Below, piece by piece: positions 2,172 to 26,373 of a stretch of DNA of 35,540 nt (position 1 is the first letter of the stretch; each line of letters begins with the position of its first letter). A program made the position numbers and the translations under genes. The stretch is taken from positions 1 to 35,540 of IMG/VR virus record IMGVR_UViG_3300031758_000261; one strand, given 5' to 3'. The DNA is from a virus (Duplodnaviria > Caudoviricetes). Under the pieces are notes generated by a model that was not told where the DNA came from, did not search any database, and saw only the letters and a list, made by a program, of their open reading frames with translations.

Positions 2172-2429
2172 ATGGAAGAAGTAAAAAAGTATCAGTTAGA
2201 CCCAACATTAGAAACCAAAAAGTACACATCAACAGATGGTACAGTTCGTTACATGAAAGATGGAAAACTACATAACTGGGAAGGACCAGCTGTAATTCAT
2301 CCAAATGGTAAAAAAGAATATTATATTAATGGTTTCCAACATGATAAAGACAGTCACCATAAAGCAAAACGTGATGGGGTTGGATTGCCTTGGTTTAAGA
2401 GTAGTGTAGGTAAAGGATCACGATCTTAA
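2172..2429 (+). CDS. Small protein with a DGKLHxxxGPA-type beta-hairpin unit
   Basis: DGKLHNWEGPAVIHPNGKKEYYING motif, common in phage and giant-virus repeat proteins. Confidence 0.75.
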   Translation: MEEVKKYQLDPTLETKKYTSTDGTVRYMKDGKLHNWEGPAVIHPNGKKEYYINGFQHDKDSHHKAKRDGVGLPWFKSSVGKGSRS

Positions 2430-2476
2430 TTTTTTTTTTGATATGTATAATAAAACATACTAACATATTTAATACT

Positions 2477-2983
2477 ATGAATAAAGAATTCCTTAAAATG
2501 CAAAAAATAGCTGGTTTAATTACTGAGAGTCAATACTTAAAGTTATTAGAAGATCAACCAGAAGAAAAAAACTATTTAGACTCAGATAGAAAATCATCTA
2601 TACCAAATTTAGGAACTACTGAGATATATGCAGCAGTACCAGAAGATGAATTATATAAAATAGAAAATTTTCCATCTATGCCTAATGCTGTAGATGTATA
2701 TTTTGATACCCCAGAAATGGCTGATATGCTTAAAAATAATGATTTTAAAAAGATTATAAATAAAATAGGATCTCATTATAAAAGCACTTGGAAGGATTTA
2801 AACTTAAATTTAACTCCTTTTCATTATATAAATTTTGATGGAAATTTTTCAACCCCATTAGATATAGCATATGCCCAAGTAGCAGGTGATTCAGGATTAA
2901 CTTTTGTAGATACTTTAAATAGATTTAGTACTGGGTATAAAACAGAAGAAGAATGGGGAATTGAAAGTTGGAAAAAACTTTAA
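2477..2983 (+). CDS. Hypothetical protein with an N-terminal scaffold-mimic leader; candidate internal head protein
   Basis: Likely start ATG 2477 (track start 2438 is TTG); begins MNKEFLKMQKIAGLITE; preceded by the variant motif ATATGTAT at 2441-2448. Confidence 0.75.
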   Translation: MNKEFLKMQKIAGLITESQYLKLLEDQPEEKNYLDSDRKSSIPNLGTTEIYAAVPEDELYKIENFPSMPNAVDVYFDTPEMADMLKNNDFKKIINKIGSHYKSTWKDLNLNLTPFHYINFDGNFSTPLDIAYAQVAGDSGLTFVDTLNRFSTGYKTEEEWGIESWKKL

Positions 2984-3007
2984 CTTTTAAAAAAAATACT
3001 TCAAATT

Positions 3008-3032
3008 AGGCTTGCGCTTGCAAGCCTTTTTT
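3008..3032 (+). terminator. Rho-independent terminator
   Basis: AGGCTTGC-GCTT-GCAAGCCT 8-bp stem followed by a T-run. Confidence 0.85.
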
Positions 3033-3040
3033 ATTATATT
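3011..3040 (+). promoter_or_regulatory. Possible host-sigma-type promoter overlapping the terminator
   Basis: CTTG at 3011-3014, 20-nt spacer, TATATT at 3035-3040, same geometry as the 2122 promoter; ATG at 3047. Confidence 0.35.
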
Positions 3041-3046
3041 ACTAAT

Positions 3047-3577
3047 ATGAAAATAGGTTTTTGTGGAACAATGAGTGTAGGCAAATCTACACTAGTACAT
3101 GCTTTAAAAGAATTACCTGAATTTAAAGATTATTTCTTTGCTACTGAACGTAGTAAATACTTACGTGATTTAGGTATTCCATTAAACACTGATAGTACAT
3201 TAAAAGGTCAAACAATATTCTTAGCTGAACGTTGTTCTGAACTAATGAGAGAAAATGTTATTACTGATAGAACAGTAATTGATGTTATGGCATTTGCTCA
3301 ATGTGCTAAATCAATTAGTGTTGTAGATAAAGGTGCTTTTGCTAATTATGCTGCTCCATTTATTTGGGAATATGATTATGTTTTCTATGTTTCTCCTATA
3401 GGAGTTAAAATTGAAGATAACGGTGTTAGGGAAACAGATGCTTATTATCGTGATAGAATTGATAGTACTATTAAACATGTTATTAAAGATAATTTATTTA
3501 ACATAAAAAACTTTGGCATCATTTCAGGTACTACAGAACAAAGAATTGAACAGATTAAAGGTTACTTAGGGTTTTGA
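3047..3577 (+). CDS. P-loop nucleoside/nucleotide kinase-like protein (AAA_28/NadR-type)
   Basis: N-terminal Walker A GTMSVGKST, ITDRT.ID motif, YDYVFYV..., EDNGVR lid. Confidence 0.75.
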   Translation: MKIGFCGTMSVGKSTLVHALKELPEFKDYFFATERSKYLRDLGIPLNTDSTLKGQTIFLAERCSELMRENVITDRTVIDVMAFAQCAKSISVVDKGAFANYAAPFIWEYDYVFYVSPIGVKIEDNGVRETDAYYRDRIDSTIKHVIKDNLFNIKNFGIISGTTEQRIEQIKGYLGF

Positions 3578-3609: not shown

Positions 3610-4509
3610 ATGAAAATCTCTGAATTAAAAAACCAAATAGAAGAATTTATAGTTGAAGTATTAAGCGAAGGTGAAGCAGTAGCATGGGGGCCAAGTAATA
3701 AAAATCAAGCCAAACAAAATATTGAAAAATCTAAGCTTGGAGCTGATGCAAAAAAAGAAGCAAAAAAAGAAATAGATGACAACCCATCAGGTATGATATC
3801 AAATGTTCCAACAAATGAATCAGAAGAAGCACTTATGGAAATGGCTTCATTCTATAAAGTAAAAGATAAAGCAGGTTTCAAATCAGCTTTAGCTAAATAT
3901 AAAGATGCTAAAGGTGATAAATTTGATAAAGGTGCTTTAGGAAAATTATTATCAACATTAGACAAAGATGGTGAAGTGGATTTAAAAGCATTATCTAAAG
4001 AAACAGGTAAGGATATAGCCACTTATAACAACCCACAAACACGTGGTGCTTTAGAAAAAGAAGGTGGTGAATTTACTGATTATCTTGAAGCTGGAAAAGG
4101 TGAAAAAGCACCAAAAGAAAAAGCTGAAGATAAGCCAAAAGCTGAACCTAAAAAAGCAGAGAAAAAAGCAGAGCCTAAAAAAGAAAAACCTGCTCCTAAA
4201 AAAGAAGAACCTAAGAAAGCTGAAAAAGAAGAAGATGAAGACGACTCAACAGATGAAAAAGCGCCATCAGAAGCAGAATTAAAGAAAATAGATAAAGAAT
4301 TTAAAACTGACAAATTTGCTAAAAAATTATCACCTGAAGAACAAGAAAAATTAGACAAATTAGAATCAGGCATTAAGAAAAAATTAGCAAACCCAACCAA
4401 AGATAATATTGCTATTGTTAAACAACTCATCAACAAACCAGAAATTAAGAAGTTGTTTAAAGACGGTGGTAAGGATCTTAAAGCATTAGTATCTGATATT
4501 ATTGCTTAA
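3610..4509 (+). CDS. Lys/Glu-rich protein, candidate internal head protein
   Basis: Likely start ATG 3610 (MKISELKNQIEEFIVEVLSE); ATATTTAT at 3577-3584; low-complexity EPKK repeats; LSE and LME sites. Confidence 0.75.
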   Translation: MKISELKNQIEEFIVEVLSEGEAVAWGPSNKNQAKQNIEKSKLGADAKKEAKKEIDDNPSGMISNVPTNESEEALMEMASFYKVKDKAGFKSALAKYKDAKGDKFDKGALGKLLSTLDKDGEVDLKALSKETGKDIATYNNPQTRGALEKEGGEFTDYLEAGKGEKAPKEKAEDKPKAEPKKAEKKAEPKKEKPAPKKEEPKKAEKEEDEDDSTDEKAPSEAELKKIDKEFKTDKFAKKLSPEEQEKLDKLESGIKKKLANPTKDNIAIVKQLINKPEIKKLFKDGGKDLKALVSDIIA

Positions 4510-4533: not shown

Positions 4534-6105
4534 ATGAGTCAAGACCTAAAACAAATAATACGAGATGAATATTTGAAGTGCGCCCAAGATCCGGCGCACT
4601 TCATGAAGAAATACTGCCATATTCAACATCCAACTCGTGGTAGAATCATATTCAACTTATACCCATTCCAAGAAAAAGTACTACGATTATGGAGAGATCA
4701 TCCATATGATATAGTACTTAAATCCCGCCAGTTAGGTATCTCAACTTTAGTAGCCGGTTACTCATTGTGGTTAATGTTATTTCAAAAAGACAAAAATGTT
4801 CTTTGTATAGCTACTAAACAAGAAACAGCTAAAAACATGGTAACAAAAGTTAAATTCATGTTTGAAAACTTACCTTCTTGGTTAAAAGTACCCGCTGAAG
4901 AAAACAATAAATTAACATTACGACTAAGTAATGGTTCTCAAGTTAAAGCAGTTTCAGCAGCTGGTGATGCAGGTCGATCAGAAGCAGTATCACTTCTAAT
5001 TATAGATGAGGCAGCGTTTATTGAAGGTATAGCTGAAATATGGGCTTCAGCTCAACAAACCTTAGCAACTGGTGGTGGAGCAATTGTATTGTCTACTCCA
5101 TATGGTACTGGTAATTGGTTCCATCAAACATGGGTTAGAGCAGAAGCACAACAAAATGACTTCTTACCTATTAAACTCCCATGGTATGTTCATCCTGAAC
5201 GTGATGATTATTGGAGAAAAAAACAAGATGAATTATTAGGAGATCCACGATTAGCAGCACAAGAATGTGATTGTGACTTTAATACTTCAGGTGATACTGT
5301 GTTCTATAGTGAACAACTAGACTTTATTTTCGCAACTTCTCTTAAAGATCCCTTGGAAAAACGTGGCATAGACCATAACTTATGGATATGGGAGTTGCCA
5401 GATTATACACGCAGTTACATGGTAGTTGCTGATGTAGCTCGTGGAGATGGTAAAGACTTTTCAACGTTTCATGTGATAGATACTGAATTAAATACACAAG
5501 TAGCTGAATATAAAAGTCAAATTTCACCAAAAGAATTTGGTTATTTACTAGTAAGCATAGCCACAGAATACAATGACGCTTTGTTAGTTGTTGAAAATGC
5601 TAATATAGGATGGTCAACCCTTGACTCAATTATTGAAAGAGGATACAGAAATTTATACTATTCTCCAAAAAGTGAGACATTAAATGCTGAAACTTACCTA
5701 GAAAGAACAGATGATCCATCAAGAATGACACCAGGTTTTACAATGTCTATGAGAACTCGTCCGTTAGTTGTAAATAAGTTTAGAGAATATGTTGGAGACA
5801 AAAGTGTTGTTATACAATCTAAGCGTCTCCTTGAAGAAATGAAAGTGTTTATATGGAGAAACGGTCGACCTGAAGCACAATCTGGTTATAATGATGACTT
5901 GGTTATGAGTTTCGCAATCGGAATGTATGTTCGTGACACTGCTTTAAAATATAAAACACAAGGTTTAGATTTAACTCGTGCTACTTTAAGTAATATGGCT
6001 ACTGTTCGTCCAAATCCACAAGGTAATTTCACTAGAAACGGTGTTCCTAACCCATACCAAATGAATATTGGTGGACAAGACGAAAATATAAGCTGGTTAC
6101 TATAA
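4534..6105 (+). CDS. terL: Terminase large subunit (T4 gp17-like)
   Basis: LKSRQLGIS Walker A region, LLIIDEAAF Walker B, STPYG motif III, ADVARGDGKDFS and DDLVMS nuclease acidic motifs. Confidence 0.95.
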   Translation: MSQDLKQIIRDEYLKCAQDPAHFMKKYCHIQHPTRGRIIFNLYPFQEKVLRLWRDHPYDIVLKSRQLGISTLVAGYSLWLMLFQKDKNVLCIATKQETAKNMVTKVKFMFENLPSWLKVPAEENNKLTLRLSNGSQVKAVSAAGDAGRSEAVSLLIIDEAAFIEGIAEIWASAQQTLATGGGAIVLSTPYGTGNWFHQTWVRAEAQQNDFLPIKLPWYVHPERDDYWRKKQDELLGDPRLAAQECDCDFNTSGDTVFYSEQLDFIFATSLKDPLEKRGIDHNLWIWELPDYTRSYMVVADVARGDGKDFSTFHVIDTELNTQVAEYKSQISPKEFGYLLVSIATEYNDALLVVENANIGWSTLDSIIERGYRNLYYSPKSETLNAETYLERTDDPSRMTPGFTMSMRTRPLVVNKFREYVGDKSVVIQSKRLLEEMKVFIWRNGRPEAQSGYNDDLVMSFAIGMYVRDTALKYKTQGLDLTRATLSNMATVRPNPQGNFTRNGVPNPYQMNIGGQDENISWLL

Positions 6106-6130: not shown

Positions 6131-8020
6131 ATGGCTGATACAAGTGTTTTTTCAAGATTAAGGAAATTATTCTCAACAGATGTAATAATTCGTAACGCTG
6201 GTGGCAATCAGCTCAAAGTAATGGATGTAAATAGCATCCAAGCAACAGGTGAGTTCCAAACTAATGCTTTAGTAGATAGATTTAATCGTATCTATTCTAG
6301 CAATAGCACATCACTTTTTGGAGCTCAATTAAATCTTAACTGGAGATATCTTCGCACCCAAGTATATTCAGACTATGATGCAATGGATACAGATGCTATT
6401 GTGGCTTCTGCTCTTGACATCATAGCTGATGAATGTACTCTCAAGAATGACATGGGTGAGGTGCTCCAAATTAGAAGCTCAAATGAAGATACACAGAAAA
6501 TTCTCTATAATTTATTCTATGATGTATTAAATATTGAGTTTAATTTATGGTCTTGGATTCGCCAAATGTGTAAGTATGGTGACTTCTTTTTAAAACTGGA
6601 AATTGCGGAGAAATTTGGGGTTTATAATGTTATCCCATACACTGCTTATCATATTATGAGAGAAGAACATTATGACCCTAAAAACCCAGCTGAAGTAAGA
6701 TACAGATTTAGCCCAGATGGTTTCTCAGGTGGTGCTACAGGTTTTTATGGTGTAACAGGTCAAGGTACTTATAGTACTAATAAAAATGATTCATCAATTT
6801 ATTTTGATAATTATGAAATGGCTCACTTTAGATTAATTACTGATGTGAATTATCTTCCATATGGTCGTTCTTATCTAGAACCCGCTCGTAAATTATTTAA
6901 ACAATATATTTTGATGGAAGATGCTATGTTAATCCATCGTATTGTTCGTGCTCCTGAAAAGAGAATTTTTTATATTAATGTGGGTTCTATTCCACCAAAT
7001 GAGGTAGAAAACTTCATGCAGAAGACTATTACTCAAATGAAGAGAACTCCATTTATGGATCCAAATACTGGTGAATATAATTTAAAATATAATCTACAAA
7101 ACTCATTAGAAGATTTCTTTATTCCTGTTAGAGGAAATGATCAAACAACTCGAATTGAACCAACTAAAGGTTTAGATTATACAGCGATTGAAGATGTAGT
7201 TTACTTAAGAGATAAGCTATTTGCTGCTTTAAAGGTACCTAAAGCATTTATGGGTTATGAAAAAGACTTAACTGGTAAAGCAACATTAGCAGCTGAAGAT
7301 ATTCGTTTTGCTCGCACAATTGATCGCATTCAAAGAATTATACTCTCAGAACTAAATAAAATTGCCTTAGTTCACTTATATACTCAAGGCTACAGAAATG
7401 AATCATTAACTAATTTTGAATTATCATTAACTACTCCTTCTATCATCTATGATCAAGAAAGAATAGCATTAATGAAGGAAAAAGTTGATTTAGCTAAAAA
7501 TATTATTGACGGTAAATTATTACCTACAGATTGGATCTATGACAATGTATTCCACTTAAGTCAAGATCAGTTTGATGAATATAGAGATTTAATTGCTGAA
7601 GACCAAAAACGTACTTTCAGATTCAAACAAATAGAAAATGAAGGTAATGACCCACTTGAGTCAGGTAAGTCATATGGTACACCTCATGATTTAGCTGCTT
7701 TATATGGTTCTGGAAGGAATGGTATTGGTGTTCCTGATGGTTATGATAAAGATGAAACTTTAGGTAGACCAAAAGAAAAAGCATCTATTGCTGGTACACA
7801 ACAAAGTACTTTAGGTAAAGATAGATTAGGTAATATTGGCATGAAAAAAGGAGATGCAACAGGTGAAGATGGATCTTTAAAGAATAATTTTAAAGGTGGA
7901 TCACCTTTAGCTTTAGAGACTAAAGATAAAAATAAAACTTTATTAGAATCTTTAGATAAAAAATTATCACTTAAAAAAGAAGAATCTTCATTATTAGATG
8001 AATCTCAAATACGAGAGTAA
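6131..8020 (+). CDS. Portal protein (T4 gp20-like)
   Basis: YGRSYLE.ARK...LMEDAMLIHRIVRAPEKRIFYINVG.IPP and EDFFIPVRG, LFAALKVPK motifs; directly follows terminase; ATATTTAT at 6105-6112. Confidence 0.93.
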   Translation: MADTSVFSRLRKLFSTDVIIRNAGGNQLKVMDVNSIQATGEFQTNALVDRFNRIYSSNSTSLFGAQLNLNWRYLRTQVYSDYDAMDTDAIVASALDIIADECTLKNDMGEVLQIRSSNEDTQKILYNLFYDVLNIEFNLWSWIRQMCKYGDFFLKLEIAEKFGVYNVIPYTAYHIMREEHYDPKNPAEVRYRFSPDGFSGGATGFYGVTGQGTYSTNKNDSSIYFDNYEMAHFRLITDVNYLPYGRSYLEPARKLFKQYILMEDAMLIHRIVRAPEKRIFYINVGSIPPNEVENFMQKTITQMKRTPFMDPNTGEYNLKYNLQNSLEDFFIPVRGNDQTTRIEPTKGLDYTAIEDVVYLRDKLFAALKVPKAFMGYEKDLTGKATLAAEDIRFARTIDRIQRIILSELNKIALVHLYTQGYRNESLTNFELSLTTPSIIYDQERIALMKEKVDLAKNIIDGKLLPTDWIYDNVFHLSQDQFDEYRDLIAEDQKRTFRFKQIENEGNDPLESGKSYGTPHDLAALYGSGRNGIGVPDGYDKDETLGRPKEKASIAGTQQSTLGKDRLGNIGMKKGDATGEDGSLKNNFKGGSPLALETKDKNKTLLESLDKKLSLKKEESSLLDESQIRE

Positions 8021-8060: not shown

Positions 8061-8918
8061 ATGACTATAAAACATTCAAAGTATAAAAATACTGGTATCC
8101 TTTTTGAATTATTAGTAAGACAAATTACCGCTGATACATTATCAGGCGCTGAATCACCAGCAACTAGTATTCTAAAAAAATATTTTGGTAAAACAGAATT
8201 AGGGAAAGAGTATAAATTATACGAGAGCTTTTTTAGACACACTAATACTAGTGAAGCTAAAGCTGATATGGTTATCAGCACACTTATAGAAAGTTCTAAA
8301 CAATTAAATCGTTCTGTTTTAAAAAGACAAAAGTACAATTTGATTAAAGAAATCAAAAATCACTATGATTTAGAGGAATTCTTTAAAACTAAATTACCAA
8401 ACTATAAAGCACAAGCTGCTTTATTTACACTTTTAGAAGTTTACAACAGTGAAAATCTGTCTAACCCTAACCAGATTATAGAAAATAAAACAGTTCTATT
8501 AGAATATCTTGTTAAGTCTCCTATTAATAAGAAAGAAGTTAAAGAAAATATCTTAGAAGAATTTAGACATCAAGATAAAGACATTCGAGTACTAGCATAC
8601 AGAGTATTATTAGAAAAATTCAATGATAAGTATGCTGATCTAAACCCACATCAGAAATCAGTATTAAAAGAATTCATCAATAGTGTTGATAATACACCTA
8701 AATTAAGAGAGTTCTATAATACTAAAATAAATGAAATCAAAAACACTTTATTAACTTTAAATAAAAAAGTTACTAATAAAGCTATCCAGATAAAAGTAAA
8801 TGAGGTTGTGAATATTTTACCTAACTTAGGTAAAACAGATAAAGTTAACGATGATCATTTAATTAATCTTCTTCAACACTATCAATTAGTTGAAGAGTTA
8901 GAATCAGTAAATGGATAA
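8061..8918 (+). CDS. Hypothetical helical protein in the head module
   Basis: 285-aa ORF between portal and protease; ATATTTAT at 8032-8039. Confidence 0.75.
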   Translation: MTIKHSKYKNTGILFELLVRQITADTLSGAESPATSILKKYFGKTELGKEYKLYESFFRHTNTSEAKADMVISTLIESSKQLNRSVLKRQKYNLIKEIKNHYDLEEFFKTKLPNYKAQAALFTLLEVYNSENLSNPNQIIENKTVLLEYLVKSPINKKEVKENILEEFRHQDKDIRVLAYRVLLEKFNDKYADLNPHQKSVLKEFINSVDNTPKLREFYNTKINEIKNTLLTLNKKVTNKAIQIKVNEVVNILPNLGKTDKVNDDHLINLLQHYQLVEELESVNG

Positions 8919-9411
8919 GAAAGAAAAAATAAAAGAACTCATTCAGAACCGATTAAAAGAAATGAGCGCCACTGGTACTGGTGCTTCTTTTACTGCTGGG
9001 ACTGGTGCTAACTATGCTACACCTTATGCTTTTAATCCAAATAAAAAAGCTAAAGGCGCTAAAAATATTTACTACTACAAACTTGGTTTTAAACCTGTTG
9101 ATCAAAAAGCTTTAAATAAAAAAGCTAAAGGTATTGAAGTAAAACATTTATGGGAAGAAGAAGAACCTAAATTTGACATTGAAGGTTTTGTTAATAGTTT
9201 AGGTGTTGATGATGAAACAAAACAATATATAGCAGGGCGATTAGGAGATTTTGATCTAATAGCAGATAAGCTAAAAGAACTTATTAAACTAATCCAGGAA
9301 GCTAAAAAAGAAACTATTAATAGCTATAGAGAATCACCAGAGAAAAAATCGGTATATGGTACTGATTTAGCTATTTCGATACTTGATAGAGCAATAAAAT
9401 TATTTACATAA
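8911..9411 (+). CDS. Hypothetical head-module protein
   Basis: Overlaps the upstream stop; N-terminal helix ending LKE, then a Gly/Thr/Ala stretch (SATGTGASFTAGTGANYATPYAF). Confidence 0.75.
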   Translation: MDKKEKIKELIQNRLKEMSATGTGASFTAGTGANYATPYAFNPNKKAKGAKNIYYYKLGFKPVDQKALNKKAKGIEVKHLWEEEEPKFDIEGFVNSLGVDDETKQYIAGRLGDFDLIADKLKELIKLIQEAKKETINSYRESPEKKSVYGTDLAISILDRAIKLFT

Positions 9412-10647: not shown

Positions 10648-11253
10648 ATGAAACAGATACTTATTGAAACCCAAACCTTTACAGCTAAACCTGTTAAACT
10701 AATTGAAGGAAAATCTTCAACTGGTAACCCTTTAGTTGAAGGAATATTAGCCACAGCCGAAGTAAAAAATGGTAATGGTCGTTATTACTCAAGAGATTTA
10801 TGGGATAGAGAAATTGATAAGTACATGGATAATGTTAAACATAATAGAGCATTAGGTGAATTAGACCACCCTGATTCTTCTATTATTAACCTAAAAAACG
10901 TCTCTCATAACATCAAAAAAATATGGTGGAATGGAGATCATGTAATGGGTGCTATAGAAATTCTACCAACACCTTCAGGTAATATATTAGCTGCTTTATT
11001 TCAAAATGGTATACCTGTAGGTGTATCATCTCGTGGTATGGGCTCATTAAAACAAATGGGTGAGCTAATGGAAGTACAAGACGACTTTGAATTATTATGT
11101 TGGGATTTTGTATCAACCCCCTCCAATCCAGGCTCATATATGAAGGAAGTAGCATTAAATGAGGGTAAAACTGTTAATAATAACCAATACTATAAAGTAA
11201 ATTCTATTATCACAGACATACTTTGTGCTAATGGAACTTGCCCAATATATTAA
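10648..11253 (+). CDS. Prohead core protease (T4 gp21-like)
   Basis: NGNGRYY, ALGELDHP, VSH (catalytic His), GVSSRGMGS (catalytic Ser), DFVSTPS motifs. Confidence 0.93.
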   Translation: MKQILIETQTFTAKPVKLIEGKSSTGNPLVEGILATAEVKNGNGRYYSRDLWDREIDKYMDNVKHNRALGELDHPDSSIINLKNVSHNIKKIWWNGDHVMGAIEILPTPSGNILAALFQNGIPVGVSSRGMGSLKQMGELMEVQDDFELLCWDFVSTPSNPGSYMKEVALNEGKTVNNNQYYKVNSIITDILCANGTCPIY

Positions 11254-11451: not shown

Positions 11452-12585
11452 ATGAACAGAGAAATGCTAAAAGAATGCATTGCTGATGCTAAAACCATCC
11501 GAGAAACAGCAATTGCAAGCGCAAAATTAGCTCTCGAAGAAGCTTTCACTCCCCAACTCACAGCTATGTTTGCTGAAAGATTAAACGAGCTTGAGTTAGA
11601 AGAAGAAGTAACTGAAGAGAGTGTGAATGAAATGTACAGCACAGAAGAAGGATTAGAAGAAGATTTTAATCTTGAAGAAATTCTTGCTGAGTTAGAAATG
11701 ACTGATGAAGGTGCTGAAATGGAAGAAGAAGGCATGTATAAAGAAGGATTAGATGAAGATCTAATGCTTGAAGAAATGTCTGACGAAGAAATTGAAACAC
11801 TTGTTATGCAAGTCATTGATGACATGATCGCATCTGGTAAGCTTATGCCTGGTGAAGGCGAAGAAGAAGGTGAAGAAGGTGAAGAAGAAGAAATGGAAGA
11901 CATGGAAGACATGGAAGGTGAAGAAATTGATGAAGACATCAATCTTGAAGAACTTCTTTCTGAAATGGATTCTGAACCAGCAGTAAATGAAGACGCAATG
12001 GCTGTTGGAGATGCTACAACTCCTGAAGCTCTTGTAGCAATGGGTTTAGCTGGTGCTTTAGTAGGAGGTACAGCTTGGAGTTCTTTAGATAAAGAACAAA
12101 AACAAAAGTTAACAGCTAATGTTAAAGCTAATTTTAATGCCGCTGGTGAAACTGTTAAAGCTTTCTTTAGAAATCTAAGCAAAGGCAAAATTTCAACTAA
12201 AGAAACAGAAGAACCAATGGAAAAAGCTACAACTACTGAAATGGAAGAAACTATCGCTGAACTCCGCAAAGAACTCAACGAAGTTAATCTATTAAACGCT
12301 AAGCTTCTTTACACCAACAAAATCTTCAAAGCTAAGAATCTTACCGAATCAGAAAAAATCAAGGTTTTAAACACGTTTGACAAAGCAGAAACTGTTAAAG
12401 AAGTGAAACTTGTATTTGAAACTTTAACTGAATCTTTTAAAGCTACTACAGCTAAAAAGAACACAATTAAGGAATCATTAGGATCAGCTTCTAAAACAAT
12501 TTCAACTGCTACCCCTAAACAACCAATTATTGAGAGCAATGAAGCATTTGCGCGTATGCAAAGACTTGCAGGTCTCAAAAAGTAA
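11452..12585 (+). CDS. Prohead scaffolding/core protein (T4 gp22-like position)
   Basis: Very acidic coiled-coil protein between protease and capsid, with many L/I-x-E sites; likely start ATG 11452; C-terminus FARMQRLAGLKK. Confidence 0.85.
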   Translation: MNREMLKECIADAKTIRETAIASAKLALEEAFTPQLTAMFAERLNELELEEEVTEESVNEMYSTEEGLEEDFNLEEILAELEMTDEGAEMEEEGMYKEGLDEDLMLEEMSDEEIETLVMQVIDDMIASGKLMPGEGEEEGEEGEEEEMEDMEDMEGEEIDEDINLEELLSEMDSEPAVNEDAMAVGDATTPEALVAMGLAGALVGGTAWSSLDKEQKQKLTANVKANFNAAGETVKAFFRNLSKGKISTKETEEPMEKATTTEMEETIAELRKELNEVNLLNAKLLYTNKIFKAKNLTESEKIKVLNTFDKAETVKEVKLVFETLTESFKATTAKKNTIKESLGSASKTISTATPKQPIIESNEAFARMQRLAGLKK

Positions 12586-12622: not shown

Positions 12623-14278
12623 ATGGAAACAATTCAACAATTAGTTGAGTCTGCCAACCCATGGAGATCACTTCAGAGTGATGCAGCTAAATTAGCTCGC
12701 AAATGGGAAAAAACCGGCCTCTTAGAAGGTCTTGGTGAAGACATCAACAAAAACAACATGGCTTTGATGTTGGAAAACCAAGCAAAGCAATTAGTAGTAG
12801 AAACTTCACAAACTGGTACTCAGTCTTCTTTTAGCTCTGGTACAAATGGTGAAAACTGGGCTGGTATCGCATTACCATTAGTACGTAAGGTATTTGGTCA
12901 AATCGCAGCGAAAGAATTTGTTAGCGTTCAACCAATGAACTTACCTTCTGGTCTTGTATTCTTCCTTGACTTCCAATATGGCACTGCTAAGAACCCATTC
13001 ACTTTAGGTGGTTCTATGTATGGTAACCGTAACGCGAGTGATCCAAACACTCCATTCTCAACCACAGCTGCTGCTGGTGGTTTATATGGTGCTGGTCGTT
13101 TCACATACTCTACTAACCAGTTCTCAGCTTCATTAACTTCAGGTTCTGCTGCAGCTACTACAGCTGTATTCTCTCAAGCTAATTGGTCTGATGTGAACTA
13201 TGATTCAGATTTCTCAGCTTCAGCCGCAGCTAATACTTTATGGAAAGTAAGTGTTACAGCTAGTTTATTATCTAACGCTGACTTAGATGGAGCTCGTGGT
13301 TTCTTAGTTAGTGCTTCTGCTAATCAAAAAGATGTTTATAACTACGCTCAATTTACTGCTGTTAGTGGAACAACTATCACATTCATTGTTAGTGGTTCAG
13401 CACTTCCAACTGGTCCAGTAGTTGCTTTGTATAACAAGAAGACTGCTGATAATGCTCGTGGTGATTTCGAAGATGGTGCTACTTATGCTATCCCAAACGC
13501 TGCTAGTGCATCTGCGATTTCTATCCCAGAAATTAACATCAGCATGCAATCTCAAGCTATCACAGCTAAGACTAAAAAGTTAAAGGCTGTATGGACTCCT
13601 GAATTTGCTCAAGACTTGAATGCGTACCAAAACTTGGATGCTGAAGCTGAATTGACTAATATCATGAGTGAGTACATCTCATTGGAAATCGACCTTGAAA
13701 TCCTTGATATGTTAATTGAAAATGTTCCTTCAATTAACACTGAGTATTGGAGTGCTGTTAATAACCAGTCTATCACTGCTCCAAACTTAACCTTCACAAA
13801 CTTAGGTTTCTACAACTCTCAAGGCCAATGGTTCCAAACTCTTGGTACTAAAATCCAAAAAATCAGCAACCGTATTCACCAATTAACCCTTCGTGGTGGT
13901 GCTAACTTCATGGTAGTTTCTCCAACTGTAGCTACAATTATCGAATCTATTCCTGGATTCGCTTCTAATAGCAATGGTGATGCTGCTGACATGGAATATG
14001 CATTTGGTGTACAGAAAGCTGGTCAATTCAACAGCCGTTACACTGTTTATAAGAATCCTTACATGACTGAAAACACTATCTTAGTTGGTTTCCGTGGTAA
14101 GCAATTCTTGGAAGCAGGTGCTGTGTTTGCTCCTTACATTCCATTGATCATGACACCTCTTATCTACGATCCAACTACCTTCACTCCACGTAAAGGTCTA
14201 TTGACTCGTTACGCTAAGAAGATGTTACGCCCTGAATTCTATGGTAAAGTTTATATTAATGGTTTGAACACCCTCTAA
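12623..14278 (+). CDS. Major capsid protein (T4 gp23-like)
   Basis: KWEKTGLLEG, LENQA, LPLVRKVF, VSVQPM..PSGLVF, AKTKKLKAVWTPEFAQDL.AY..LDAEAEL, YIPL, PRKGLLTRYA motifs. Confidence 0.96.
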   Translation: METIQQLVESANPWRSLQSDAAKLARKWEKTGLLEGLGEDINKNNMALMLENQAKQLVVETSQTGTQSSFSSGTNGENWAGIALPLVRKVFGQIAAKEFVSVQPMNLPSGLVFFLDFQYGTAKNPFTLGGSMYGNRNASDPNTPFSTTAAAGGLYGAGRFTYSTNQFSASLTSGSAAATTAVFSQANWSDVNYDSDFSASAAANTLWKVSVTASLLSNADLDGARGFLVSASANQKDVYNYAQFTAVSGTTITFIVSGSALPTGPVVALYNKKTADNARGDFEDGATYAIPNAASASAISIPEINISMQSQAITAKTKKLKAVWTPEFAQDLNAYQNLDAEAELTNIMSEYISLEIDLEILDMLIENVPSINTEYWSAVNNQSITAPNLTFTNLGFYNSQGQWFQTLGTKIQKISNRIHQLTLRGGANFMVVSPTVATIIESIPGFASNSNGDAADMEYAFGVQKAGQFNSRYTVYKNPYMTENTILVGFRGKQFLEAGAVFAPYIPLIMTPLIYDPTTFTPRKGLLTRYAKKMLRPEFYGKVYINGLNTL

Positions 14279-25486: not shown

Positions 25487-25810
25487 ATGCAACAAAGAGT
25501 ACCATTTAAATGGGGTAATGCTAATTTTGCTTGGGAAACAAATCCTTTTCCAAATCAAAGTAAAAACCCATTCACTTGGGATGATTGTGCTTTGATAATT
25601 GAAGTAGTAGAATCTTTATTAGGAGGTAAATCTTCTGAAGACATATGGAAAGATAAACAGAAAAAGAAACGATTTATAAAATTGCTTTGCAAAATTGAAG
25701 GCAAAGAATATAAAGAAACTAAAGAAGTAATAGATCGTAAAATACGTATATCAGACATAGCCTTAGTAGCTAAGGAAGTTCTAGGCATAAACATTAAAGT
25801 TGATTTATAA
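25487..25810 (+). CDS. Hypothetical protein
   Basis: 107-aa ORF with a Trp-rich N-terminus; coupled to the next gene (TAATG). Confidence 0.7.
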   Translation: MQQRVPFKWGNANFAWETNPFPNQSKNPFTWDDCALIIEVVESLLGGKSSEDIWKDKQKKKRFIKLLCKIEGKEYKETKEVIDRKIRISDIALVAKEVLGINIKVDL

Positions 25811-26373
25811 TGTATAAACTATTTACAGATAAACCTGAAGTATTTGAATGTAATATTAAATTAGAAGGTGCTTCATTAAAAAACAGCCAAGCTCGTTTAA
25901 TCATTGAGACAGAAGATATTAATCTTTTATTCAATGGTTCCATCACCTCAGATGGTAAGTGTACTATTCCTATTAAAAAACTAAAAGGTCTTTTAGAAAG
26001 TAATACAGAAGGTCAAATTAAGCTTGAGGTCATCGCAGAGGATACTTATTTTACTCCATGGAAATCAAGTTTTCAAGTTGAAGCATCTAAAAAATTAACT
26101 GTGGAAGTTAAATCACAAGACGCTGAACTTATAATGGAAAATGCTCCTAAAATTCAAGTTAGTGGTATTAAAGAAGAAAATATTGATCCTATAACAGAAC
26201 ATGTAATTAAGTTAGTTAGAATGTTAATTAAAGAAGACATTAATGTTAAAAACTTAACTATTAAAAAAGATAAAGTAAATAACATTGTAGCTACTTACTT
26301 ACAAGAAAATAAAATTGAACAAAACCAAGTTCAAGAAATTATAGACGGGATTGTTTCAAAACTCCCAAAATAA
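25810..26373 (+). CDS. Hypothetical protein (beta-rich N-terminus, helical C-terminus)
   Basis: 187-aa ORF; the C-terminal half has IME, IKE, ITE and LQE motifs. Confidence 0.7.
   Translation: MYKLFTDKPEVFECNIKLEGASLKNSQARLIIETEDINLLFNGSITSDGKCTIPIKKLKGLLESNTEGQIKLEVIAEDTYFTPWKSSFQVEASKKLTVEVKSQDAELIMENAPKIQVSGIKEENIDPITEHVIKLVRMLIKEDINVKNLTIKKDKVNNIVATYLQENKIEQNQVQEIIDGIVSKLPK

Follow-up and report, generated by a model that had tools for sequence, protein, structure and literature searches.

The DNA analysed here (the window, 35,540 nucleotides in length) is a 35.5-kb virus record, labelled G000, and corresponds to a fragment of a phage with a T4-like head. Family matches place a terminase at 4534 and a T4-type portal at 6131. 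Further along, the plus strand encodes a prohead protease of the T4 gp21 type (Peptidase S77; 10648..11253; PF03420, E 7e-29; phrog_207), a 377-aa protein (11452..12585) and a major capsid protein (MCP) of the Gp23 family (12623..14278; PF07068). The nearest cultured relative is the 160-kb Flavobacterium phage immuto, the MCP of which is 55% identical to that of the window, followed by Mel-JY01 (49%), LR756508 (45%) and RM378 (35%). Two relatives are complete (161-163 kb), and relatives encode GroEL and GroES (immuto gp197 and gp198). From immuto alone, we infer that the host belongs to the Bacteroidota. At least half of the sampled sequence words were found in 13 runs, five with freshwater or lake labels (one of which may be the source) and eight labelled fungus metagenome. 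The head module of Mel-JY01 includes a gene annotated as ribosomal protein S21 (L218:22183-22410). A conserved 285-aa gene located 3' of the portal (8061-8918) has 18 [ILV]xE sites, which account for 69% of its Glu residues, and its product is likely a second degradable core protein; ORF 25810-26373 is comparably rich in such sites (5.3 per 100 aa).

The ORF under study (2477-2983, plus strand) starts with an ATG at 2477 and encodes 168 aa with the N-terminus MNKEFLKMQKIAGLITESQYLKLLE. Its first 17 residues (M1-E17; 2477..2527), MNKEFLKMQKIAGLITE, hereafter the leader or tag, align with the stretch NEAFARMQRLAGLKK at the end of the protein preceding the capsid gene, namely the 377-aa product mentioned above, which has the C-terminus IIESNEAFARMQRLAGLKK. 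In an ungapped BLOSUM62 comparison, the last 15 residues of that protein and residues 2-16 of the ORF score 37, the next best score being 18. This value was reached in none of 1000 proteome shuffles (maximum 36), nor in any of 200 shuffles when the C- and N-termini of the 33 ORFs were compared all against all (maximum 34). The match is beyond chance, and the earlier note was right in seeing a resemblance between the N-terminus of the ORF and the extreme C-terminus of the scaffold. The pattern [RK]MQx[LI]AG[LI] has only two matches in the six frames of the window, the leader and the scaffold tail, and the looser [LI]AG[LI] returns the same two only. The note had further placed an I-x-E site next to both peptides, and such sites are indeed present (ITE17 and LLE25 in the ORF, IIE361 in the scaffold); its scaffold coordinate needs correction, as 12547 falls on the F of FARMQ and IIE lies at 12526-12534.

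The leader is predicted to form a helix (residues 3-11) followed by a loop ending in ITE. It is continued by a linker, SQYLKLLE (2528..2551, plus strand), that ends in LLE25, a second predicted protease site. In the model of a homolog, P0002 (82% identical), two helices span residues 3-11 and 17-40 with ITE at the junction between them. No PDB sequence was matched by the tag profile or by the scaffold profile. When the first 25 residues were compared by tblastn to 50,697 phage records (E<=10), four immuto records only were recovered, in a search that a 10-residue signal could escape.

The 377-aa protein, encoded on the plus strand, is presumed to be the head scaffold because of its position between the S77 protease and Gp23 genes, its acidity, its predicted helices and its dense [ILV]xE sites (24 in total, or 6.4 per 100 aa, with 18 kept in at least 70% of 37 rows); it has no Pfam, PHROG or PDB match, and its helices are modelled with low confidence (mean pLDDT 64). 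Its homolog in immuto, gp067 (L214:30627-31868; 54% in the best segment), is annotated as a "DNA polymerase phi-like protein". The tail, IIE-SNEAFARMQRLAGLKK (12526..12585, plus strand), is the counterpart of the leader. The motif forms the C-terminal end of 43 of 44 complete related scaffolds, and in close relatives the predicted cut site E361 precedes the tail in 37/37 rows. Tails resembling the motif also occur in Mel-JY01 (VERMKKLAGIVK), LR756508 (KSRMQKLADIS) and RM378 (LERIKRLAGL), three phages with MCP identities of 35-49%, which indicates that the tail is an old scaffold feature. It is modelled as one helix (364-372; pLDDT about 60) after a disordered stretch, the coat-binding domain of P22 being a helix-turn-helix. 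In four of five uncultured records (not G004), the scaffold tail is itself recovered by the leader profile, with 10-13 bits.

A hypervariable insert was observed in the scaffold (11992-12225 of the window, residues about 181-258); the stretch compared among 37 relatives varies from 24 to 139 aa in length. It often consists of a Gly/Ala-rich hydrophobic helix and then basic residues, and is flanked by conserved x-N/K-E and T-x-E sites; conceivably, the protease sets it free as a passenger peptide. A relationship between this insert and tagged cargo was considered and dropped, since no convincing similarity was found (2 weak matches at E 0.005-0.007).

Searches with ORF 2477-2983 returned proteins having little in common beyond the leader. 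A DNA pattern scan yielded 122 loci, of about 170 stretches estimated in the collection, and a scaffold search 56 loci. Together, scan loci, whole records and immuto gave 153 distinct motif contexts, which are N-terminal in 116 cases, C-terminal in 31 and otherwise placed in 6. Cargoes that are complete and at least 40 aa long number 90 and fall into 57 families (single-linkage, E<=1e-3). A profile built from 94 leaders matches 1,723 of 1.84 billion cluster representatives (50% identity) at E<=1e-3; among the best 150 of these, the motif copies are N-terminal in 145 cases, internal in 9 and C-terminal in 3, and 125 cargoes group into 73 families. Four larger records have 5 to 7 leader-profile matches each, and immuto carries the leader on gp083 and gp230 and the tail on gp067. 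The expectation that the motif would occur beyond this ORF and the scaffold, on diverse proteins beside I/L-x-E, is borne out by these 90 cargoes in 57 families, and a motif of structural genes is enriched upstream of tagged genes (see below). Tags also occur at both ends of proteins of 805-969 aa, and internal and C-terminal copies were found elsewhere. In a set of proteins of 805-1005 aa (L201:6104-8518, L188:9995-12790, P0167, P0169 and P0174), the tag is N-terminal and most have a second copy at or near the C-terminus; these large tagged proteins are candidates for Alt-like or DNA-ejection proteins. No match to the leader profile was found in Mel-JY01, LR756508 or RM378 despite their kept scaffold tail, in a weak search run without positive control.

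T4 gp21 cleaves after L/I-X-E, according to the part of PMC9026906 available, and the cut sites of T4 Alt include ITE-6 and LTE-619 (available part of PMC5694885). In the MCP, [ILV]xE occurs at E9 and E60 in 94/94 rows and at E35 in 93/94, and the match to mature T4 gp23* starts at profile position 68, just past E60; the MCP propeptide is predicted to end at VVE60 (about 12623-12802). That an [ILV]xE site is kept just before the start of the gp23* match makes a T4-like specificity plausible, and the S77 protease of the window is presumed to cut the tag. The motif is followed by ITE in 111/116 cases of the pattern set and by [ILV]xE in 141/145 of the profile set, counts with some circularity, ITE having been part of both the DNA pattern and the profile. 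In whole-record scans made without the ITE requirement, 15 of 17 N-terminal tags are directly followed by [ILV]xE, 5 of these 17 being the matches that led to the records in question and the two exceptions being large proteins. A second [ILV]xE at +4 to +18 was found for 77 of the 116 tags vs 141 of 790 control windows (18%). No virion proteome of immuto was found in the literature, as judged by titles or the opening of abstracts.

The leader itself appears to be exchangeable. Three further leader patterns were recognised in related genomes, of the types K-S-E-L-K-Q-L-I-K-E-E, F-D-L-K-K-F-L-x-E and K-L-x-x-L-L-x-E, and were formulated from inspection as regular expressions. Among 31 untagged homologs of tagged cargoes, 5 carry variants of the same tag; of the remaining 26, 11 bear one of these other patterns vs 31 of 748 background ORFs. 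One homolog pair, 57% identical over 168 aa, bears different leaders, and the four dissimilar leaders all terminate in hydrophobic-x-Glu. No other observation speaks as strongly as this swapping for leaders that are separable modules sharing one function. The idea of an N-terminal tag is right as far as 116 of the 153 contexts go; it has to be widened, since copies are also internal and C-terminal and the tag is one of at least four interchangeable leaders. By eye, two other ORFs of the window, 3610-4509 (MKISELKNQIEEFIVEVLSE) and 8911-9411 (MDKKEKIKELIQNRLKE), start with helices like those of the second leader family, and the window may hold further tagged proteins there. In LR756508 (L219, a 484-kb phage), many genes near the head module (140-190 kb) begin with a leader of the K-L-R-x-I-I-x-E-E type.

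In the window, the tagged ORF occupies a variable slot bordered on the left by a conserved 85-aa gene (2172..2429) and on the right by a thymidylate-kinase-like gene (3047..3577; phrog_2107), both on the plus strand. The gene next to the 85-aa gene was compared in 28 distinct cases: it bears the tag in 15 (11 by pattern, in 6 families, and 4 with an MQKMA variant recognised by eye), is the kinase in 8 and some other gene in 5. An empty slot was seen in run X12, with a joint 2416-3028. In two RNA runs, contigs are confined to the neighbouring genes and to the leader portion of other genes. On the plus strand, 36 bases 5' of the start codon, lies ATATGTATA (2441..2449), a candidate late-promoter motif. 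Its general form, [AC]TAT[GT]TATA, occurs 5' of 64 among the 116 tagged genes, compared with 118 among 795 ORFs from four related genomes, the former count being inflated by related genes from one slot, and it also precedes terminase, portal, neck and tail genes in G001. By its enrichment and position, the motif would act as a promoter and the tagged genes would be expressed late. The shared N-terminus might then be a by-product of a mobile cassette made of late promoter and translation start, the peptide having no targeting role. Such a passive origin would account for the high DNA identity between tags (0.71-0.72), for an upstream motif that travels with the tag and for the RNA-library contigs of another run that agree with the window over exactly 2469-2526 (the leader) and differ from it on either side; we nevertheless regard it as very unlikely, since internal and C-terminal copies cannot aid translation start, the peptide matches the C-terminus of the scaffold, a second [ILV]xE follows far above chance and four dissimilar leaders share the same kind of end.

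The DNA of the tags also bears on their origin. The earlier note had viewed the leader as a graft from the phage's own scaffold. Over 8 records, tag and scaffold are 0.57 identical in DNA within the same genome and 0.57 across genomes (15 and 105 pairs), whereas tags compared to one another reach the 0.71-0.72 given above; fresh grafting from each phage's own scaffold is ruled out by these values, and tags being no nearer to their own scaffold than to others points to an old, separate tag lineage. Most likely, a single ancient event derived the tag from a scaffold tail, and promoter plus leader now pass from one cargo gene to another as a cassette. Co-variation of tag and scaffold is suggestive in the single case of immuto. 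Conservation by codon position in the tag (0.83/0.92/0.71) was discarded as evidence, this being circular as the search pattern had fixed those positions.

The cargo body of the ORF (2552..2983, plus strand) belongs to no Pfam or PHROG family. The model of its homolog P0002 shows a compact domain (pLDDT 81) with no Foldseek match at E<=0.001 and no usable Atlas match; the best comparison to structures involves the N-terminal helices only (VIA, Z 4.4), and the absence of structural matches does not imply a new fold. Compared to P0002, its closest homolog, the window allele has two in-frame deletions of 19 and 10 aa within 2552-2750, which remove most of a DUF6576 segment (19 residues) and a conserved Cys pair. 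An assembly artefact is ruled out as their source by an independent contig that is identical to the window over 2379-3124, with no difference. The window allele may be a degenerate cargo.

Tagged cargoes are acidic in 82/90 cases (pattern set) and 101/125 (profile set) vs 367/601 background ORFs, with a median net charge of -0.08 to -0.11 per residue vs -0.02 in the background. A Pfam scan of 130 of the best 150 tagged proteins gave a match at E<=1e-3 for 5, with 1 above the curated cut-off, and no enzyme family was found among these 130. Membrane-like helices are not clearly enriched in cargo (14/125 vs 56/601). Relative to expectation, [ILV]xE is most frequent in the linker (observed/expected 2.3), followed by scaffolds (1.6), background ORFs (1.25) and cargo bodies (0.78-0.84). 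A specific shortfall of cut sites in cargo bodies is ruled out by the control spacing [ILV]xxE, which is equally low there (0.78), so that cut-site avoidance is only a hint. Brought into the prohead by the tag, these proteins could be accessory acidic components of the core, like T4 gp67 and gp68, that tune head size or assembly, then remain in the head or exit from it, and are not directed at the host. Their strong acidity and the lack of enzyme families in the set scanned would fit such a role, and internal and C-terminal tag copies look like multi-point docking; yet core proteins such as the scaffold are rich in cut sites and the cargo bodies are not, the one cargo modelled is a compact domain, and quick turnover in a single slot suits a host arms race better than a structural function. 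This explanation is rather unlikely.

Overall, these data suggest, with a probability of ca. 0.68, that the 17-residue leader is a docking tag by which proteins would be loaded into the prohead and that it would be clipped off by the gp21-type protease, as the capsid-targeting sequence (CTS) of T4 is. The reading draws directly on the match to the scaffold, the spread over unrelated cargoes, the free position, the exchange of leaders, the protease motif and the upstream motif, from which we infer late expression, docking, packaging, cleavage and cargo retention in the head. Tagged genes would be made late from an upstream motif of the structural-gene type, and the leader helix would dock where the scaffold tail docks in the prohead. 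Proteins bearing the leader would be built into the head, the S77 protease would cut after ITE17 or the following L-x-E (LLE25) and the freed cargo would stay in the head. The docking partner would be the capsid protein (propeptide or inner face) or, with nearly the same probability, the scaffold core. By analogy with P22, the product of 12623..14278 is the candidate binding partner; the available part of PMC7411985 describes the T4 CTS as interacting with the core and not with the shell, so that binding of the leader to the capsid face is an analogy and not a result.

Short terminal helices can also serve as degrons or chaperone tags, and the helix could bind a partner outside the head lattice, such as the prohead protease, the portal, the phage GroEL-like chaperonin or, as a degron, a host protease. 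The presence of GroEL and GroES in relatives speaks for such a partner. In both scaffold and cargo, however, a site of the head-protease type separates the motif from the chain on the correct side, an arrangement sensible mainly inside the prohead, and scaffold C-termini of P22 are known coat binders (available part of 10.1101/2022.12.13.520362). All in all, a partner outside the head lattice seems distinctly improbable.

The docking-tag reading can be extended, tentatively, to a multi-address packaging code, in which several interchangeable short helices, including a natural copy of the scaffold tail that works at either end or inside, would load fast-changing, uncharacterised proteins of more than 1000 clusters into the head for injection, which the earlier note had likewise proposed, into Bacteroidota hosts. 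Were this extension correct, sequence would directly reveal the counter-defence proteins that are injected and act early. If the docking-tag reading itself holds, the origin of a capsid-targeting signal would be the scaffold's own docking tail, and the tag would help to locate where the scaffold contacts shell or core in T4-type heads. It would also provide a sequence rule predicting internal virion proteins in a large and mostly uncultured clade of water phages, as well as a short cleavable packaging tag for a Flavobacterium phage. The tag is carried by 1,723 protein clusters, with almost no annotation among the 130 proteins scanned, and immuto, which is in culture, has both the scaffold tail and two tagged genes.

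Among known systems, encapsulin targeting peptides resemble the tag in that short peptides direct dedicated cargo into a shell of the HK97 fold, as the portions of the literature available describe them. A non-viral encapsulin shell was not found here as partner, the shell gene being a phage Gp23 gene with terminase, portal and protease adjoining. Encapsulin targeting peptides occur at either terminus, and the encapsulin shell is a cellular compartment without scaffold or protease step. P22 is not known to have a prohead protease. Its scaffold coat-binding domain is likewise a conserved element at the extreme C-terminus, as is the tail here (43/44 scaffolds, and three distant phages). In engineered P22 fusions to truncated scaffold (SP141-303 and SP238/239-303), a C-terminal scaffold element takes protein into the procapsid (available part of PMC9962691). 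Those fusions are engineered, comprise 65-160 residues and sit at the C-terminus of the cargo, whereas the candidate described here is a natural element of about 14 residues, usually found at the N-terminus, and its removal by cleavage is predicted. The capsid-targeting signal of P1 DarB and the propeptides of the ejection proteins of SPN3US and phiKZ are, like the tag, N-terminal signals on internal head proteins, as far as the accessible text of the reports goes. According to the same sources, the N-terminal 15 residues of SPN3US gp53 and gp54, which come with cleavage motifs, are identical, a further likeness to the tag, whereas the P1 Dar proteins lack a consensus, and the propeptides of giant phages are mostly longer than 100 residues and cut at A/S-X-E, with no scaffold mimicry reported in those portions of text.

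The closest parallel is the T4 CTS, found on IPI, IPII, IPIII and Alt as propeptides removed by gp21. In both cases the phage has a gp20/gp21/gp23-type head, and variable proteins with no relationship to one another share a short N-terminal propeptide that terminates in an L/I-X-E site. On account of two features seen at the sequence level, the shared propeptide and the L/I-X-E site together with a gp21-type protease, the tag would work like the T4 CTS, which carries foreign proteins into heads (available part of PMC9026906). T4 Alt is also cut C-terminally, as the large doubly tagged proteins described here would be (available part of PMC5694885). The T4 CTS has been shown experimentally, whereas the tag is known from sequence alone. 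Unlike the T4 CTS, the tag matches a scaffold C-terminus, comprises 17-25 residues, is also internal and C-terminal, and is one of at least four interchangeable leaders borne by acidic cargoes, CTS-bearing internal proteins of the T4 type being described as basic in the text available. Scaffold mimicry by the T4 CTS is not reported in the available parts of PMC9958956, PMC3012670, PMC7411985, PMC9024508, PMC5694885, PMC9026906 and PMC9962691, and no description of the motif was found in a literature search that had most subscription journals and all supplements outside its reach. What sets the candidate apart from the T4 CTS would be the scaffold mimicry, the free position, the several interchangeable leaders and the acidic cargo. 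The suggestion of an undescribed system is to be narrowed accordingly: the kind is already known from the T4 CTS, and the new part is the mimicry of the scaffold.
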